From positions 9,333 through 73,332 of the forward strand of contig CAZCHH010000003.1 in assembly GCA_964498585.1 (NCBI GenBank): DNA of 64,000 nt, written 5' to 3'. Each line of letters begins with the position of its first letter. The stretch's first letter is position 1. Shown here one piece after another: positions 5,830 to 49,431 of this stretch. This stretch comes from an uncultured Hyphomicrobiales bacterium (GTDB lineage: Bacteria > Bacteroidota > Ignavibacteria > Kapaibacteriales > UBA2268). Under the pieces are notes generated by a model. That model made no database searches. It saw only the letters and a program-made list of their open reading frames with translations, and was not told the origin of the DNA. Both the position numbers and the translations under genes were made by a program.

Positions 5830-6021
5830 ATGGGAGCAAAATTAACACAGTTCTACGAAGAAGCTAAGAAAATCGGTGGTATAAAAGCTCAGATGCGTAT
5901 GGCTATTCTAACAAAAATGCCGAGTACTCAAGCTTCAATATCACCTGATTCTCAAGAAAATATTAATATTTTCCAAAATGCTTTAAATGAAATTAAAAAA
6001 GAAAGTGGGAGAATAATATGA
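5830..6021 (+). CDS. small hypothetical protein (63 aa), first gene of a 3-gene operon
   Basis: AGGA 8 nt upstream of the ATG. Its stop overlaps the next start (ATGA), implying translational coupling. Confidence 0.5.
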   Translation: MGAKLTQFYEEAKKIGGIKAQMRMAILTKMPSTQASISPDSQENINIFQNALNEIKKESGRII

Positions 6022-7157: not shown

Positions 7158-7556
7158 TATATTACTAATTACATCTTTACATTTATTTGTTATTTTTTTT
7201 AATTCATTACTGAAAAATTGGTCTGGACTGGATGATAATTTTAGAACTTATAAATAAATTTAAGAGTTATTTTAAAAATGCAACACTGAGTAATTGAATA
7301 TGGCAACTAAATGCGATATTGTTCTTTATGAAGTAAATCTCCTAACACCTTTATTTTAATTATATTATCTGATATTTTGTTTTACTTTTAATTTATTTTG
7401 AGTTTCCAAAAGTTTGGAAACTAAGAGAAAGTTTAGTATTTTTATAATTAATTTTGTATCAATAATCCTAAATCATTTTTTGATATTGAATTAATTTACA
7501 TTTCAAAATAATGTTAAGTGAAAATTATAAGTTATTAATTTAAAATTAGCTTAAAT

Positions 7557-43724: not shown

Positions 43725-44813
43725 ATGAAAAAGAAATGCCTTGTTGGAATGTCCGGTGGAGTAGATTCCTCAGTTTCAGCTGCTTTATTGCTCGAAATGG
43801 GCTATGAAGTTGAGGGATTAACAATTACTCCATTTCGTATTGATCCAAACTGCCGTCAGTCAGAAACAGAGAAAAGCTGCTGCTCGGCAAAAAGTATGCA
43901 AGATGCCCATAACATTTGCGAGCTACTTGGTATAAAACATCATTTAATTGATTTAACTGAAGAATTTAAAGAGAAAATTGTAAGCAAATTCATTTATGAT
44001 TATCTTTCAGGAAAAACCCCCAATCCCTGTGTGCTATGCAATCCTTTGATTAAATGGGAAGCTTTGACTAAAATTGCTGAAAAATATAGTTGCGATTTCG
44101 TTGCTACGGGACATTATGCTAAAATAAATTTCAATGAGCAAAATCAAAGATATTATATTACAAAAGGAAAAGACTCCACAAAAGACCAATCTTATTTCCT
44201 TTGGAAGTTGTCGCAGAAGCAGCTTTCTAAAACTATTTTTCCTCTATCAAATTTCAGCAAAACAGAAATAAAAGAAATTGCAGTAAAACTGGATTTTAAT
44301 ATTGAAAAAAAGCCGGAATCACAGGAAATTTGCTTCATTCCCGATAACAATTACCACAATTTTTTAGAAAATAATGTTTTAGACATCGAAAAGAAAATAA
44401 GCAAAGGCAATATTGTTTTTAATGGCGAGATTATTGGGCAGCATAGTGGCTCCCCATTTTATACTATTGGGCAGAGAAAAGGGCTTGGTATCTCGCATCC
44501 GAAGCCGCTTTACGTAAAAAGCATTGATGCTAAGGAAAATGTATTGGTAGTTGCTGAAGATGATGATATAAGCAGTATTTCATTAATTGCCAGTGAATTA
44601 AATTTCCAAAAATATATTGAAATTGAAGAAGAAAAAATCTTTAATGTAAAAATTCGCTATAAAGACAAGGGTAGCGATGCAAAATGCAAAATGCTTGCTA
44701 ACGGAACTTTGCGTATTGATTTTCTGGAAAAGAAAAAAGCAGTAACTCCCGGTCAATCTATTGTAATTTACGAAGATAATGATTTATTAGCAGGTGGAAT
44801 TATTTTGGAGTAA
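43725..44813 (+). CDS. mnmA: tRNA 2-thiouridine(34) synthase
   Basis: PP-loop 'CLVGMSGGVDSSVSAALL', the catalytic Cys region, and typical length. Confidence 0.9.
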   Translation: MKKKCLVGMSGGVDSSVSAALLLEMGYEVEGLTITPFRIDPNCRQSETEKSCCSAKSMQDAHNICELLGIKHHLIDLTEEFKEKIVSKFIYDYLSGKTPNPCVLCNPLIKWEALTKIAEKYSCDFVATGHYAKINFNEQNQRYYITKGKDSTKDQSYFLWKLSQKQLSKTIFPLSNFSKTEIKEIAVKLDFNIEKKPESQEICFIPDNNYHNFLENNVLDIEKKISKGNIVFNGEIIGQHSGSPFYTIGQRKGLGISHPKPLYVKSIDAKENVLVVAEDDDISSISLIASELNFQKYIEIEEEKIFNVKIRYKDKGSDAKCKMLANGTLRIDFLEKKKAVTPGQSIVIYEDNDLLAGGIILE

Positions 44814-45054
44814 ATCATTTTCCTCTGCTTGTATTAGTTTGAATAGATTCAGTAACGATATTAGAATTTAATAAAAATTACAGAAAAAACTTAGTTTTTT
44901 ACAGTATTTTAAGCAAACCATTTATTATCAATTACTACTGAATATTTTTTTTTAATTTATGAATAATACAGGTTTATTAATATAACTTCTAAAAATAGTC
45001 ATTCTACACTGCAGGAAAATCAAATATTTTGTTAAAAATCAAAAGACATTTAAA

Positions 45055-45300
45055 GTAAGTATCATTCTGACATACGTCAGAATGACACTTTTAGTTATGT
45101 CATTTCTATTAAATAAAGGTCTCTCTTTATCTGGGGATTACCAATGACATCTTTACTTTAAACTTTACGAAAGTTAAGAAACTTCCGCAAAGTAAGAAGA
45201 TTAATACTTTCGTAAAGTTTCTTAAGTTTGCGAAAGTTTAAAATATGTCATCTCCATTTAAATAAAAGTCTTCTTTTATCTAGGGATTCGAAATGAAAAG
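45055..45300. repeat. composite palindromic repeat cluster (tcattctgacatacgtcagaatgaca perfect palindrome; aaataaaggtctctctttatctggggatt; ctttcgtaaagtt inverted copies)
   Basis: Direct reading. 'ctttacgaaagttaag...cttaactttcgtaaag' forms a long inverted repeat. Confidence 0.75.
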
Positions 45301-45361
45301 ACTGCGAAATAGCATGCTACGAGGCATCAGGAGTTCTGAAATTCTTAAAACTCCTTTATAA

Positions 45362-45757
45362 TTAGTAATCTCTCATAAAGACACTCATTGTTATATTCAG
45401 CCAATTTCCTACCCACTTTTTATCAACAATTTTTGCTAAAATCAATTTTCCCGCATCCATTAACCGTGCTAAAATTTCGTTCTTATCCCGAGGAATATAA
45501 CCAAGTTTTTTCCCTTTTTGAGTTAAAATTAGAATAGCAAATTCATCAAATTGGTTTTCTGGTTCTCTAAGTGTAAGCAAAATCTCGTCTATCAAAAGAT
45601 GTGGCTCAATTTCAGTGAGATTCAAATAGCTTGTTCCTGCAACTTTACATTCAATCAAAAAAATTTCCTGAACAAAAGGCATTGGCAGGCCATCTGTTGT
45701 AAATGAACTTTGAATAATCGCAAGCAGATTCGGGTCAATTACAGCTAAATCCGACAT
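45362..45757 (-). CDS. standalone HIRAN-domain protein
   Basis: 'CKVAGTSYLNL...LTLREPENQFDEFAILILTQKGKKLGYIPRDKNEILARLMDAGKLILAKI...ITMSVFM' follows the HIRAN pattern (VvG..YY...L.R.P.N.yD.NAI.V....G..vGyl.r..A..L...mD...l...g...). It overlaps the upstream gene by 23 nt. Confidence 0.7.
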   Translation of the reverse strand: MSDLAVIDPNLLAIIQSSFTTDGLPMPFVQEIFLIECKVAGTSYLNLTEIEPHLLIDEILLTLREPENQFDEFAILILTQKGKKLGYIPRDKNEILARLMDAGKLILAKIVDKKWVGNWLNITMSVFMRDY

Positions 45758-46571
45758 TATTTTCGTATCCTAAAGTTTTTAGCACATTTTTATAAAAAAT
45801 TATTATTGATTCTAATTGCAGTTTTTCTATTTCTGTTTTTTCTTTTTCACTATTGATTAGGTTTTCATTTTCAATGATATTGATAAGAATATATGGTTTT
45901 TTACTTTTTACATCATTAATTTTTTCAATATAATATTTTATGCTTTTATCTAATTTATTTTTTATTTCTGATAAATCATTTTGAACTTCTGTGATTTTAT
46001 AATCTTCATCATTATCTAAAATTAATTCAATAGCTTTCAGTTCATCAAGATTACAATCTTTATATGCTTCGTAAACCCGCGTCCAAAGTAATTTTTGCAT
46101 TTCATTTAAATTTGGATTGATGTCCGGATGCAGTATTTTGCATAATTTTCTGAACAAACTTTTTAATTGAGTAGAATCAGGTTCGGTTTCTAATAACTTT
46201 ATCCTCTTTTCAGCATTTTTCAAAGCGGTAGCGTAGTTCCTTATTTCTCTTTCCCAATCCAGCGATTCCCGTAGCAAAATATTTTCAACTTCAGTAATAT
46301 TGACCGATTTATTTTGATTTACATAGCTTTGTATCAGTTCAATTTTCCTTTTAAGTTTTTTTGCTTCAAATTCAAGATAAAGTTTTTCAAGCTGATATTT
46401 ACCAATAATAGTAAAATATTGAGCTTCAATATTCTTGCAAACTGTGTTTATCAGCAGTTCATATTCATTAACAAGGATTGATAATTCCTCTTTCAAGTTT
46501 GAAATATCTTGTTTGAGTTTTTTATTCTTTTCATTTTCAATAATTTGCATATTTCGGATATCTTTATTCAA
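45735..46571 (-). CDS. coiled-coil protein with a C-terminal J-domain-like module (HPD motif)
   Basis: 'LKSLFRKLCKILHPDINPNLNEMQKLLWTRVYEAYKDCNLDEL' matches J-domain helices II-III with the invariant HPD. The long N-terminal heptad-rich region suggests coiled coil. Confidence 0.6.
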   Translation of the reverse strand: MNKDIRNMQIIENEKNKKLKQDISNLKEELSILVNEYELLINTVCKNIEAQYFTIIGKYQLEKLYLEFEAKKLKRKIELIQSYVNQNKSVNITEVENILLRESLDWEREIRNYATALKNAEKRIKLLETEPDSTQLKSLFRKLCKILHPDINPNLNEMQKLLWTRVYEAYKDCNLDELKAIELILDNDEDYKITEVQNDLSEIKNKLDKSIKYYIEKINDVKSKKPYILINIIENENLINSEKEKTEIEKLQLESIIIFYKNVLKTLGYENNVGFSCN

Positions 46572-46582
46572 ATGTAAAAAAA

Positions 46583-47092
46583 TTATGCACTTATATTATG
46601 TTGCCAGAATATTTTATCATTAATAAAAACTTTATAACTAATAAATGCGGCTAATGGGCCACCTATCCAAGCATTTGATTCTACAGTAACTTCTCTAATA
46701 TATTCATCATTTTTTTTATCATAAATAATATACATTGCAGATTCAAATAGTGTTCTATAGGAAACCCAGAAATTTTCTCCCCAATAATCTAAATCAAATT
46801 TTTCATTTGGGAATAAATTATTTTCACTATTTTCATTAATTAAGGATTCAGCGTATTTAAATAACTCAATTAATTCACTATCTTTTTTAATTATTATATG
46901 ATTAACAAGAGAAGTCAACGGAATTTGTAATTCATAATCATTATTAGAATATAGCAAAATCATTGTATTTTTCTTTAAAATTTTGGGGTCTATTAAATGT
47001 ATAGTTTTTTTATATTCTGATGAATTTTGGTTATAAGTTGAACAAGAACTTATAAAAATAATAATCAAAAGTAAATAAATTAGATTTTTCAT
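46583..47092 (-). CDS. hypothetical lipoprotein
   Basis: Signal peptide with 'ISSCST'. It lies 12 nt upstream of the J-domain gene. Confidence 0.5.
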   Translation of the reverse strand: MKNLIYLLLIIIFISSCSTYNQNSSEYKKTIHLIDPKILKKNTMILLYSNNDYELQIPLTSLVNHIIIKKDSELIELFKYAESLINENSENNLFPNEKFDLDYWGENFWVSYRTLFESAMYIIYDKKNDEYIREVTVESNAWIGGPLAAFISYKVFINDKIFWQHNISA

Positions 47093-47124: not shown

Positions 47125-47592
47125 CTACTTATTTTGATTTATCATAGATTTAACTAATACTTTTGTATCTATTACAGGAAGAATGAATTTATTTAAGAAA
47201 CTTCCCTGCGTTTTAGCAAAAATTATTCCTCTTGCAGTTGAGTATGTCATTCCTACTAATTCTGTCAATAAATCATCTGGCAAAGTGAAACTTTCATTGT
47301 TCATTTGAATTATTGAAGTTAAATTTAAAATTTTAAAATCACAAACTAATACTAATTCAATTAACTTTATATTTTTATTATTAAAAAGATAATTATTCAC
47401 TACAGTTAGTTGAATTTGAAAAATATTTTGTTCTTTTATGTAAGCATAAGCAAGATTAAATCCTAAATTTAAATTTTTTGAATTAAAATTAGAGGTAATA
47501 TCAAGGGCTGGTTCAATCAAGCTAAAGCGTCTTATTGAAATGTTGTTCAACTTGTAAGAAATTGTAATATTCTCATACTGTTTCGTATTCAT
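47125..47592 (-). CDS. SecB-like chaperone, putative TAC-system chaperone
   Basis: From Met 'MNTKQYENITISYKL...' about 155 aa. Segments 'FQIQLTVVNN', 'IELVLVCDFKIL' and 'MTYSTARGIIFAKTQGSFLNKFILPVID' parallel E. coli SecB ('VVLRVTVTAS', 'FLCEVQQGGIFSI', '[29 protein letters not shown]'). It sits immediately downstream of the HigA-like gene. Confidence 0.55.
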   Translation of the reverse strand: MNTKQYENITISYKLNNISIRRFSLIEPALDITSNFNSKNLNLGFNLAYAYIKEQNIFQIQLTVVNNYLFNNKNIKLIELVLVCDFKILNLTSIIQMNNESFTLPDDLLTELVGMTYSTARGIIFAKTQGSFLNKFILPVIDTKVLVKSMINQNK

Positions 47593-48055
47593 CTGCTTTT
47601 TCAAAATTAATGTTAGTAAAACATAGGTTTGATAAAAAATCATCATCTGAATTTGTTGTATTTTCTAAATCAATATTTTGATAATTAGAAATTCCCGAAT
47701 TTTCACCTAAATTTAATTGTATATTTATATGCTCGTAAAGATTGTCATTAAGATAGCCCAATTCGTCCTGCTTAATAATTTCTTCAATATCAATAAATTT
47801 TACTCTTGGAACTTTATCTATTGCTAATGCTAAATCAATAAATTTAGATAATCTATGGTCAAATTCTCCATTCAAAATCTGAGAGACGTAACCTTTTGTT
47901 ACATTTAGTTTTTGAGCAAATTGAATACGGGTTAGATTATTCTCTTTTAGGTATTCCTTAATAAGTTCGAATAATTCCTGCTGAATTTCACCAATCCAAT
48001 ATTCTCTGCTTTTAAGCAATTCAGCTCTTGTCATTTTCTTTTCTCCTGTATTCAA
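47573..48055 (-). CDS. XRE-family HTH antitoxin (HigA-like) with a ~75-aa acidic C-terminal extension, a candidate chaperone-addiction region
   Basis: HTH 'LTRIQFAQKLNVTKGYVSQILNGE'. It overlaps the toxin gene by 35 nt and has an extended C-terminus 'DDDFLSNLCFTNINFEKADEYETV'. Confidence 0.7.
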   Translation of the reverse strand: MNTGEKKMTRAELLKSREYWIGEIQQELFELIKEYLKENNLTRIQFAQKLNVTKGYVSQILNGEFDHRLSKFIDLALAIDKVPRVKFIDIEEIIKQDELGYLNDNLYEHINIQLNLGENSGISNYQNIDLENTTNSDDDFLSNLCFTNINFEKADEYETV

Positions 48056-48422
48056 GATATTGGTTAATAGTTTTTCTAAAATGATTTAAATCTTTCTTTT
48101 GACTTGTTTTATAACCACCAGTAATAACAATATTTCCGTTTTCTTTATCAATAAAATAATATAATCTTAAATGTTTTGTTTTTATTTCACATTCAGTAAC
48201 AAAAGTTTCCTTGCTATTAAGAATTCTAAATTGTTTTTCCGGCAACCTGCGTCCTGAAGCTAATACGTTCAACTTGTGATAAATTGAGTTTATTTCAGTT
48301 TTATAATTTTGCCTTGCCTTAATCTCAAAAACATCAAATTCACAATTTTCATCTTTTTGCAGTTTGAAAAAAATCAATTTCCCTTTAACAGCTTCAATTC
48401 TTATTAACGCAAATTTACTCAT
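48021..48422 (-). CDS. HigB/Gp49-like (RelE/ParE superfamily) toxin
   Basis: 133 aa with 'FRILNSKETFVTECEIKTKHLRLYYFIDKENGNIVITGGYKTSQKKD' (RelE-fold beta-sheet region). It lies upstream of, and overlaps, the XRE antitoxin gene in the HigB-HigA order. Confidence 0.6.
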   Translation of the reverse strand: MSKFALIRIEAVKGKLIFFKLQKDENCEFDVFEIKARQNYKTEINSIYHKLNVLASGRRLPEKQFRILNSKETFVTECEIKTKHLRLYYFIDKENGNIVITGGYKTSQKKDLNHFRKTINQYLEYRRKENDKS

Positions 48423-48495: not shown

Positions 48496-49431
48496 CTACA
48501 TTTCAATAAACTCTAAGCATTTTTCTTTATCTTCTTCAAGTTGAGTTTTTATTTCTTCTATACCTTTAAACTTTTTCTCTTCCCGAATAAATTTGATGAA
48601 ATTCACCGATACTTTTTTCCCATACAAATCCTCCTCAAAATCGAAAAGATGAACTTCCAAAAGCAATTCACCATCTTCTTCAAATGTAGGCCTTACTCCA
48701 ATATTTGCCATTCCGTAATATGTTTTATTTTGAATTTCAGAAGAAACCAAGTAAACTCCTTTAGCCGGAATTAATTTATACTTATTTGAAAAAGAAAAAT
48801 TGAGTGTAGGAAAACCGATTGTCCTGCCGCGTTTTTGTCCTTTTACAACCACATCTTCAATAAAATAAGAATAGCCAAGCAGTTCGTTTGCAAGTTCAAC
48901 CTGCTGAGATAAAATCAGATTACGGATTTTGGTGCTTGAAATTATTAATTCTTTTTCCAGAAAAGCATCAATTTTTTCAATTTGGAAATTATATTCATTA
49001 GATAACTCAATAAGTAACGATTCGTTACCTTGACGGTTTTTTCCAAAAAGATGGTCGTAACCAATTAAAAGAGTGTGTAATCCGGTTTTTTTTACTAAAT
49101 ATTCAACAATGAAATCTTTTGCATCAGTTTTTGCAAACTCTATTGAAAATGGGATAATTAAAACATTTTCAATCCCTTTACTTTTGAATAATTTCAATCG
49201 CTCATCAATCGTGGTTAAAAGAAAAATCTGCTTTCTGTCCACTTTGTTCAAAACAATTTGCGGATGTGGGTCTATTGTCAAAATCAAATGCCTTAAATTT
49301 TTACGATTAGACATTTCTAATAATTTGTCAATAATCAACTGATGACCGCGATGGACGCCGTCGAATGTACCAACAGTAATTATAGTATTTGGATTATATT
49401 CTATTTCGTTAAAATTGTTGTAAATGTTCAT
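48496..49431 (-). CDS. ribF: bifunctional riboflavin kinase / FMN adenylyltransferase
   Basis: 'VGTFDGVHRGHQ' nucleotidyltransferase motif and a C-terminal riboflavin kinase 'GFPTLN'. Confidence 0.9.
   Translation of the reverse strand: MNIYNNFNEIEYNPNTIITVGTFDGVHRGHQLIIDKLLEMSNRKNLRHLILTIDPHPQIVLNKVDRKQIFLLTTIDERLKLFKSKGIENVLIIPFSIEFAKTDAKDFIVEYLVKKTGLHTLLIGYDHLFGKNRQGNESLLIELSNEYNFQIEKIDAFLEKELIISSTKIRNLILSQQVELANELLGYSYFIEDVVVKGQKRGRTIGFPTLNFSFSNKYKLIPAKGVYLVSSEIQNKTYYGMANIGVRPTFEEDGELLLEVHLFDFEEDLYGKKVSVNFIKFIREEKKFKGIEEIKTQLEEDKEKCLEFIEM

Follow-up and report, generated by a model that had tools for sequence, protein, structure and literature searches.

Specialised J-domain proteins that target Hsp70 to particular sites are well known, and the HIRAN domain is well studied as a eukaryotic reader of DNA 3′ ends. 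Here we describe a pair of overlapping genes, one encoding a helical protein with a predicted central J-domain and the next a small standalone HIRAN protein, found in a stretch of 64,000 nucleotides (nt) from an uncultured bacterium of the Kapaibacteriales (contig CAZCHH010000003.1 of GenBank assembly GCA_964498585.1, positions 9,333 to 73,332; hereafter the window). Among the described systems that come near to this pair, CbpA of Escherichia coli is a DNA-binding J-domain co-chaperone of DnaK, and CbpM is its small partner encoded by the next gene. The likeness lies in the two-gene operon, which joins a DNA-tied J protein to a small dedicated partner. But CbpA carries its J-domain at the N-terminus, ahead of C-terminal domains of the DnaJ type, and makes its own contact with DNA, and CbpM does not belong to the HIRAN proteins, whereas in the present pair long helices flank a central J-domain, C-terminal domains like those of DnaJ were not detected and DNA recognition would fall to the separate HIRAN subunit.

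The second comparison is with eukaryotic HLTF and Rad5. The HIRAN domain of HLTF binds DNA 3′ ends, HLTF works at stalled forks, and in HLTF/Rad5 the HIRAN domain delivers an ATP-driven machine to DNA 3′ ends. The HIRAN fold and its core motif are common to HLTF/Rad5 and the window protein; in HLTF, however, HIRAN is fused to a SNF2 motor and a RING domain, whereas the window protein is a standalone HIRAN of 131 amino acids (aa) with an N-terminal extension of its own, and the machine recruited by the pair would be Hsp70 where in HLTF it is a DNA translocase. In bacteria, HIRAN also occurs in the predicted conflict or toxin-antitoxin module HipI-HipN, PADLOC candidate PDC-M03, which consists of a HipA-family kinase and a HipS-HIRAN protein. 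In the PDC-M03B profiles the HIRAN part is C-terminal, and it is this part that the window HIRAN protein matches (3e-11, positions ~125-209 of 250), but we rejected membership of PDC-M03, as the island encodes no HipA kinase and no HipS-like domain and the match reflects the shared HIRAN domain. A match of the J protein to PADLOC PDC-M04B (E=0.004) was too weak to use.

Three further lines of published work come close to one or other half of the pair. Systems centred on an ADP-ribosylglycohydrolase are predicted to counter viral ADP-ribosylation (PMC9503650, section 3.8); there the glycohydrolase goes with a chaperone-type component and sometimes with a rhodanese-type phosphatase or a restriction-fold nuclease, and a separate two-gene ARPP-HIRAN pair is also reported. 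The words J-domain and DnaJ occur nowhere in that paper, and the glycohydrolase is found only in a minority of the J relatives described below and is absent from the window pair. The anti-phage protein bNACHT25 is reported to depend on host DnaJ for phage sensing (PMC12169576), which sets a precedent for wiring Hsp70/J-protein machinery into anti-phage sensing; but bNACHT25 has a NACHT ATPase and relies on the housekeeping DnaJ, with neither a dedicated J protein nor HIRAN. Hsp70-like domains fused to McrB have also been described in some type IV restriction systems. In the literature prokaryotic HIRAN proteins are still described as uncharacterised. The preliminary description of this DNA could place the HIRAN/J pairing in no described system, and this stands: our full-text search for HIRAN together with J-domain, DnaJ, operon or anti-phage found no paper linking both domains and left the pair undescribed, with the limit that Iyer, Babu and Aravind 2006 lies outside its coverage and may have noted the neighbourhood.

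The features of the pair are as follows, with the basis of each assignment in brackets (ORF, open reading frame; HMM, hidden Markov model):

45362..45757, minus strand: standalone HIRAN gene, 131 aa, downstream member of the pair (ORF)
45380..45661, minus strand: HIRAN domain, residues 33-126 (Pfam envelope; HMM alignment to HLTF)
45662..45757, minus strand: N-terminal extension of the HIRAN protein, ~30 residues, conserved, preceding the region aligned to 3k2y
45735..46550, minus strand: gene for the coiled-coil / J-domain / helical protein, 271 aa, upstream member of the pair
46571, minus strand: alternative TTG start of the J gene (45735-46571, 278 aa)
46011..46175, minus strand: predicted J-domain helices II, III and IV, residues 126-180 (alignment, PDB matches, model)
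46122-46130, minus strand: HPD codons, residues 141-143
46191..46532, minus strand: long N-terminal helices of the J protein, residues 7-78 and 85-120 (conserved motif LKRKIELIQ..N)
45774..45974, minus strand: C-terminal helical region of the J protein, residues 193-259 (alignment and model; P219)
45735..45757, minus strand: J/HIRAN gene overlap, 23 nt (ORF coordinates)

The strand, the 131-aa HIRAN ORF and the 23-nt overlap are exactly as first described, and the overlap suggests translational coupling of the two genes. The J protein had been given as 278 aa; the ORF from the TTG does exist, but the ATG at 46550, giving 271 aa, is more likely the start, because independent gene calls in other assemblies use it and the N-termini of the homologues align with it.

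A pattern scan over one genome per species gave at least 566 loci with close relatives of the HIRAN protein, and 80 of these were kept for analysis, from Verrucomicrobiota, Kapaibacteria, Acidobacteriota, Planctomycetota, Bacillota, Lentisphaerota and others, Armatimonadota, Chloroflexota, Myxococcota, Proteobacteria and Leptospiraceae being covered as well. A J-family HMM was run against the 1.3 kb preceding each HIRAN gene. In 68 of the 80 loci it showed a J gene of full length, in a single frame, directly upstream of HIRAN, and in three more the J gene was broken by a frameshift or by a stretch of N (71 full-length in total); six loci were cut by a contig end, four of them showing J sequence up to the edge, and in the last three (L044, L076 and L078) J was reduced to a fragment next to an intact HIRAN ORF. 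Counted over the loci with readable upstream DNA, J sequence stood upstream in 74 of 74. The preliminary description had made its proposal depend on the two homologues being neighbours in other genomes, and they were adjacent wherever the DNA was readable. Similar observations were made in the reverse direction: starting from the J proteins P0149, P0152, P0158, P0170 and P0003 and from the neighbour of P0062, we found HIRAN to be the next gene in six of six lookups, on contigs of gut Bacillota, of a close relative of the window organism and of Methanobrevibacter, with a HIRAN protein of ~132 aa encoded immediately downstream. The pairing thus goes far beyond chance expectation. The junction between the two genes ranged mostly from a 23-nt overlap to a 35-nt gap, and the overlap of 23 nt recurred identically in L001/L085 and in L104.

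Furthermore, the pairwise identities of the J proteins correlated with those of their HIRAN partners (r=0.72, a value that 0 of 2000 permutations reached), and therefore the two genes are inherited as a unit, with J diverging faster than HIRAN (mean pairwise identity 32% against 54%). By an exhaustive profile search the J family comprises 1170 clusters when E≤1e-30 is required, and 2586 when the limit is E≤1e-10. In the archaeon Methanobrevibacter sp. (L098:6001-7150) an overlapping pair lies amid ordinary metabolic and ribosomal genes, which points to transfer between domains of life. When the ORFs of the 80 loci and the window were clustered by all-against-all BLAST in search of a third conserved gene, only J and HIRAN were obtained; the remaining clusters that spanned several loci were apparently shadow ORFs lying antisense to the pair in genomes of high GC. 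Candidates for natural J-HIRAN fusions were also rejected, as runs of N lie within the long ORFs of L013 and L054, and P0202 has a tail that resembles an out-of-frame read-through. The pair is best explained as a self-contained two-gene module, dispersed widely by horizontal transfer.

The 131-aa protein is clearly a HIRAN protein. Over residues 33-126 it scored 56.9 bits with Pfam PF08797, whose cut-off is 24.7 (E=1.8e-15), and all the motifs quoted for it earlier (VAGTSY, LREPENQFDEFAI, LGYIPR, LARLMD and ITMSVFM) are present in it. A profile built from 29 HIRAN homologues matched the bacterial protein lp_0118 (3k2y) at 8.7e-12 and human HLTF's HIRAN domain at 1.4e-6. The AlphaFold2 model of the protein (predicted local distance difference test, pLDDT, 86.9) matched 3k2y in Foldseek with E=1.5e-6 and a target-normalised template modelling (TM) score of 0.83, and 3k2y and seven HLTF HIRAN entries were all retrieved with probability 1.0. 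In the profile HMM alignment REPENQFDEFAI of the window protein aligns to RDPNNPYDKNAI of HLTF; the aligned motif reads REP-x-N-x-x-D-x-x-AI, with the general form R-D/E-P-x-N-x-aromatic-D-x-x-A-I, and R64, N68, D71 and A74 are invariant among the 29 homologues. In published structures the HLTF residues of this motif form the pocket for the DNA 3′ end. The window protein keeps the sequence motif of this pocket, and DNA 3′-end binding is predicted for it on that ground.

The HIRAN domain is preceded by an extension with the consensus IDPxLLAL..GSFG.DG.PMPF..EIFLIE, in which P27, E31, I32 and L34 are invariant in the same 29 homologues. The standalone HIRAN structure 3k2y aligns from residue 38 onward only, and the model places a helix at residues 9-17 of the extension with a pLDDT of ~85; judged from the sequences compared, the extension (residues 1-32) is specific to the J-coupled HIRAN subfamily. 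A different standalone subfamily was met on plasmid p1 of Lactobacillus amylolyticus (L106:3866-4312), where the gene for a DNA/RNA non-specific endonuclease is closely followed by that of a HIRAN protein of 148 aa, 39% identical, and there is no J gene. With this nuclease-linked protein bacterial HIRAN therefore has at least two other types of partner, a nuclease and the HipA kinase.

The J-domain assignment is supported at the level of the family and is weaker for the window protein taken singly. In 63 of the 66 aligned genome homologues, which come from many phyla, Pfam DnaJ was matched at E≤0.01, the best at 4.5e-8, and the profile of the family matched 29 sequences in the PDB, all of them J-domain proteins (best 2.6e-6), the J-domain of CbpA (2kqx, 3ucs) among them. 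The window protein contains KLCKILHPDINPN, and all 66 homologues have H141, P142 and D143; since the mean pairwise identity in this set is only ~32%, strong selection must act on HPD. The basic helix II (LKKLYR.LVKKLHPD) is also retained in the family. The AlphaFold2 model is helical throughout (pLDDT 83.8; predicted TM score, pTM, 0.67), with N-terminal helices at residues 7-78 and 85-120 and J-domain helices at 126-140, 150-164 and 168-180, the HPD lying in the loop that joins helices II and III. The J-domain is thus central (residues ~126-180) and not N-terminal, no DnaJ_C or zinc finger match was obtained in any of the 66 family members, and P219 in the C-terminal region is near-invariant within a K..PY/F motif. 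The preliminary description had also staked its reading on profile support for both domains; such support was obtained from profiles and folds, for HIRAN outright and for the J-domain with HPD through its family. At two loci (L003:5176-5996 and L025:5185-6020) the J gene appears as two ORFs in different frames, one with the N-terminal coiled-coil part and one with the J part, and is annotated by gene callers as two proteins; either the gene is truly split or it has a frameshift.

The surroundings of the pair were surveyed by neighbour scans, which yield family counts. Conflict-type neighbours included PIN, HepT, MmeI-type and other restriction-modification genes, STAND NTPases and transposases, and the PADLOC matches among the neighbours included type IIG restriction-modification, Cas3/Cas7, MADS, UzuA, RmrA and SoFic. 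At several loci the pair follows a restriction gene of the same strand, 8-19 nt downstream of it, and three unrelated types of such genes are represented, namely at L088-L090 (J at 7184, 4139 and 4121), L095-L097 (J at 6001) and L099-L101 (J at 6001 and 4479). One type is an MmeI-like enzyme with an integrase alongside; another, in gut Bacillota, is a SNF2-type helicase with a restriction-fold nuclease, and the element concerned also carries ParB, ImmA-like and Y-polymerase genes; and the third is a type I HsdR on an integrative element. The operon of SNF2, nuclease, J and HIRAN recalls the HIRAN-SNF2 architecture of HLTF.

About one tenth of the best 150 J-family matches carry extra N-terminal domains. 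In three of these 150 (P0176, P0180 and P0254) an ADP-ribosylglycohydrolase precedes J (Pfam E from 2e-66 to 2e-16), and in both of the fusion genes looked up, P0176 and P0180, the usual 132-aa HIRAN gene comes next. DUF6508, the N-terminal domain of one J protein, was the only family recognised among the remaining extensions searched. The fusion loci are:

L102:89-2083, ADP-ribosylglycohydrolase-J fusion, with HIRAN at 2095-2493
L103:390-2021, ADP-ribosylglycohydrolase-J fusion, with HIRAN at 2026-2424

A rhodanese-type dual-specificity phosphatase (PTP-SAK / Tc-R-P / DSPc) is encoded directly upstream of J in L091:6589-7155, the same region as L003; a rhodanese-type phosphatase domain was found in two of the 117 upstream neighbours scanned.

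We propose that the pair is a two-subunit adaptor targeting host DnaK to DNA 3′ ends, with a probable role in genome conflict or repair, and we give this proposal about an even chance. The HPD loop of J-domains switches on the ATPase of Hsp70, and it is from such established roles of J-domain and HIRAN proteins that we infer a physical complex, DNA-end binding, recruitment of DnaK and a biological role. The J protein and HIRAN would assemble as a complex in which the J protein would serve as an all-helical scaffold, in which two long N-terminal helices precede the central J-domain and a further helical region follows it at the C-terminus. HIRAN would dock this complex on free or recessed DNA 3′ ends, for which stalled or reversed forks, gaps, restriction-cut DNA and the replication intermediates of an invading element are candidates. 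There the J-domain would activate the ATPase of the housekeeping Hsp70, DnaK, which would in turn remodel or evict a protein at the DNA end. The 64-kb window encodes no Hsp70 motif, and HSP70 was not among the neighbour families listed in the neighbour scans. The preliminary description had thought of a sensing role in DNA damage or phage replication with recruitment of DnaK, which by analogy with the known functions of the two domains is a reasonable suggestion.

A role in genome conflict, or in repair of the damage that conflict inflicts, rather than in core housekeeping is suggested by the patchy accessory distribution of the pair, its restriction, toxin-antitoxin and mobile neighbours, the fast evolution of J and the swappable N-terminal modules. 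More tentatively, the pair may be a widespread prokaryotic immunity or genome-guarding system, in which a 3′-end sensor would be wired to Hsp70 through its own J protein and the N-terminal modules, such as ADP-ribosylglycohydrolase, would tune sensing or repair. On this more tentative reading the pair might also work alongside restriction enzymes, for instance to free the ends of cut DNA from enzymes or other proteins stuck there.

Several observations weigh against the proposal of a DnaK adaptor acting in conflict or repair. The window J protein itself falls below the gathering score of Pfam PF00226 DnaJ (18.6 against 27.8 bits, E=0.002), and only its helices II and III align to known J-domain structures, helix I going undetected. 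In two divergent members of the J family, P0007 and P0008 (257 aa), HPD is replaced (LVRAWNPALN), and some lineages may have lost stimulation of Hsp70. Many loci have housekeeping neighbours such as RecA, YidC, infC and tRNA synthetases, and the defence-island signal near the pair is modest, coming from raw family counts. Neither protein was matched in 50,697 phage genomes; 72,556 plasmids gave two weak HIRAN matches, of which the one inspected belongs to the other subfamily; and the viral contigs of IMG/VR gave just three loci, each with J upstream. Finally, the clustering of the 80 loci showed no nuclease or killing effector in the conserved core of the pair.

The alternative that fares best is a guard or toxin-like arrangement, which we consider unlikely. 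HIRAN would here be the effector or client that clamps 3′ ends or forks and blocks replication, J and DnaK would restrain or release it, and a phage that hijacks DnaK or DnaJ would free HIRAN and abort the infection. The coupled two-gene layout beside toxin-antitoxin and restriction genes and the faster evolution of J relative to HIRAN would suit such an arrangement, as would the predicted HipA-family toxin-antitoxin modules in which HIRAN domains are found and the reported precedent of bNACHT25 as a defence that reads out DnaJ/DnaK. But the intact HIRAN genes beside fragmentary J in L044, L076 and L078 are unexpected if J is an essential antidote, and toxic or catalytic activity is not known for HIRAN.

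Alternatively, the pair might be an ordinary repair or replication-restart factor, through which DnaK would clear stuck proteins at stalled forks or gaps with no part in conflict; we hold this to be rather improbable. The structures matched here include HLTF, a eukaryotic HIRAN protein that acts at stalled forks, and the housekeeping neighbours, with UvrA-related genes besides RecA and infC, fit such a factor, as does the absence of the pair from phages and plasmids. Its patchy distribution, with synteny missing even among close relatives, argues against it, as do its presence in integrative or prophage-like elements, its place as the last genes of restriction operons, at their 3′ end, and the varying N-terminal domains.

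It is also very doubtful that the J-domain is decayed or a mimic which no longer engages Hsp70, leaving the protein as a coiled-coil scaffold for HIRAN. The sub-threshold Pfam score, the undetected helix I and the lost HPD of P0007 and P0008 would be in keeping with decay, but an HPD present in every one of the 66 homologues at so low a mean identity indicates strong selection, and the basic helix II is kept as well.

The pair stands in the window at the end of a row of six minus-strand ORFs that occupy the interval between mnmA (43725-44813, plus strand) and ribF (48496-49431, minus strand). The other features of this interval are:

46583..47092, minus strand: putative lipoprotein gene, 169 aa (signal peptide ending ...FISSC)
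47125-47646, minus strand: SecB-like protein gene, member of a toxin-antitoxin-chaperone (TAC)-like module
47573-48055, minus strand: gene for a helix-turn-helix (HTH) protein, putative antitoxin (HTH_3 5.8e-8)
48021-48422, minus strand: gene for a RelE/Gp49-like protein, putative toxin (Gp49 match 2.5e-3)
47125..48422, minus strand: TAC-like module of three genes (PADLOC PDC-M64C 2.4e-14)
44814..45361, no strand assigned: intergenic spacer of 548 nt between the convergent mnmA and HIRAN genes

That all six act together, as TAC-like toxin, antitoxin, chaperone, lipoprotein, J and HIRAN, is hardly credible, for in spite of the common strand, the gaps of 11-32 nt or overlaps and the same order in another sample of the species, the four extra genes are without a homologue near the pair in the 80 loci, a relative with a 68%-identical J lacks them and a Kapaibacterium relative has other neighbours.

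In the first of these relatives the pair, again overlapping by 23 nt, is flanked by Fe-S oxidoreductase genes on one side and an S41 peptidase gene on the other, and in the Kapaibacterium relative its flanks are PemK and PIN toxin-antitoxin genes; L104 and L085 both lack the TAC-like genes as well as the lipoprotein. In the ORF clustering of the 80 loci the lipoprotein and the three TAC-like genes were singletons, and the six-gene order recurred only in other samples of the same species. As these genes have no counterparts beside the pair elsewhere, the six-gene island is a local juxtaposition and not a functional unit, although co-transcription of the six genes in this genome, as first suggested, is possible. 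The gaps had been given as 12 and 33 nt; we measured 11 nt between the lipoprotein stop and the TTG start of J (32 nt if J starts at the ATG), and likewise 32 nt separating the stop of the SecB-like gene and the start of the lipoprotein. A candidate internal promoter before J (TAnnTTTG at 46569-46576) was rejected, as the motif occurs in the window at chance frequency (117 against 113 expected), and a sigma-70 scan for promoter signals was likewise at chance level.

The TAC label of the preliminary description holds with reservation: the best match of the module was PADLOC candidate PDC-M64, of which component C was matched at 2.4e-14 and A and B weakly, and this, the HTH_3 match and the Gp49/RelE-like match are all modest. 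The HTH antitoxin of the module, which is independent of the pair, has a long C-terminal tail. The lipoprotein, for which no significant match was found in Pfam, NCBIfam, PHROGs or PADLOC, is an orphan gene between the TAC-like genes and the pair with no counterpart in related loci. The DNA at 44.8-45.36 kb had been called repeat-rich; a unit of ~65 nt does occur twice there (45084-45147 and 45232-45296, 148-149 nt apart, 73-79% identity), with a 41-nt imperfect inverted repeat between the copies (45154-45245), and this intergenic spacer also holds a terminator-like hairpin of a 10-bp stem at 45062-45085. One repeat arm was searched and had no further copy in the 64-kb window. The spacer could be a decayed miniature mobile element or a terminator region; an RNA element was rejected, since Rfam gave a single miRNA-family match (E=0.77) far under the gathering score.

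The J/HIRAN pair would thus take its place among the specialised J-domain proteins that target Hsp70, here through a separate HIRAN subunit. If the proposed mechanism is true, it would be a simple natural case of a remodelling chaperone aimed at DNA ends. The pair spans hundreds of species, with Bacillota of the human gut, bacteria related to Akkermansia and a methanogen among them, and it would offer a testable handle on the role of bacterial HIRAN domains, on why the module ends restriction operons, and on whether removal of ADP-ribose from DNA or DNA-bound proteins may be part of the same process.

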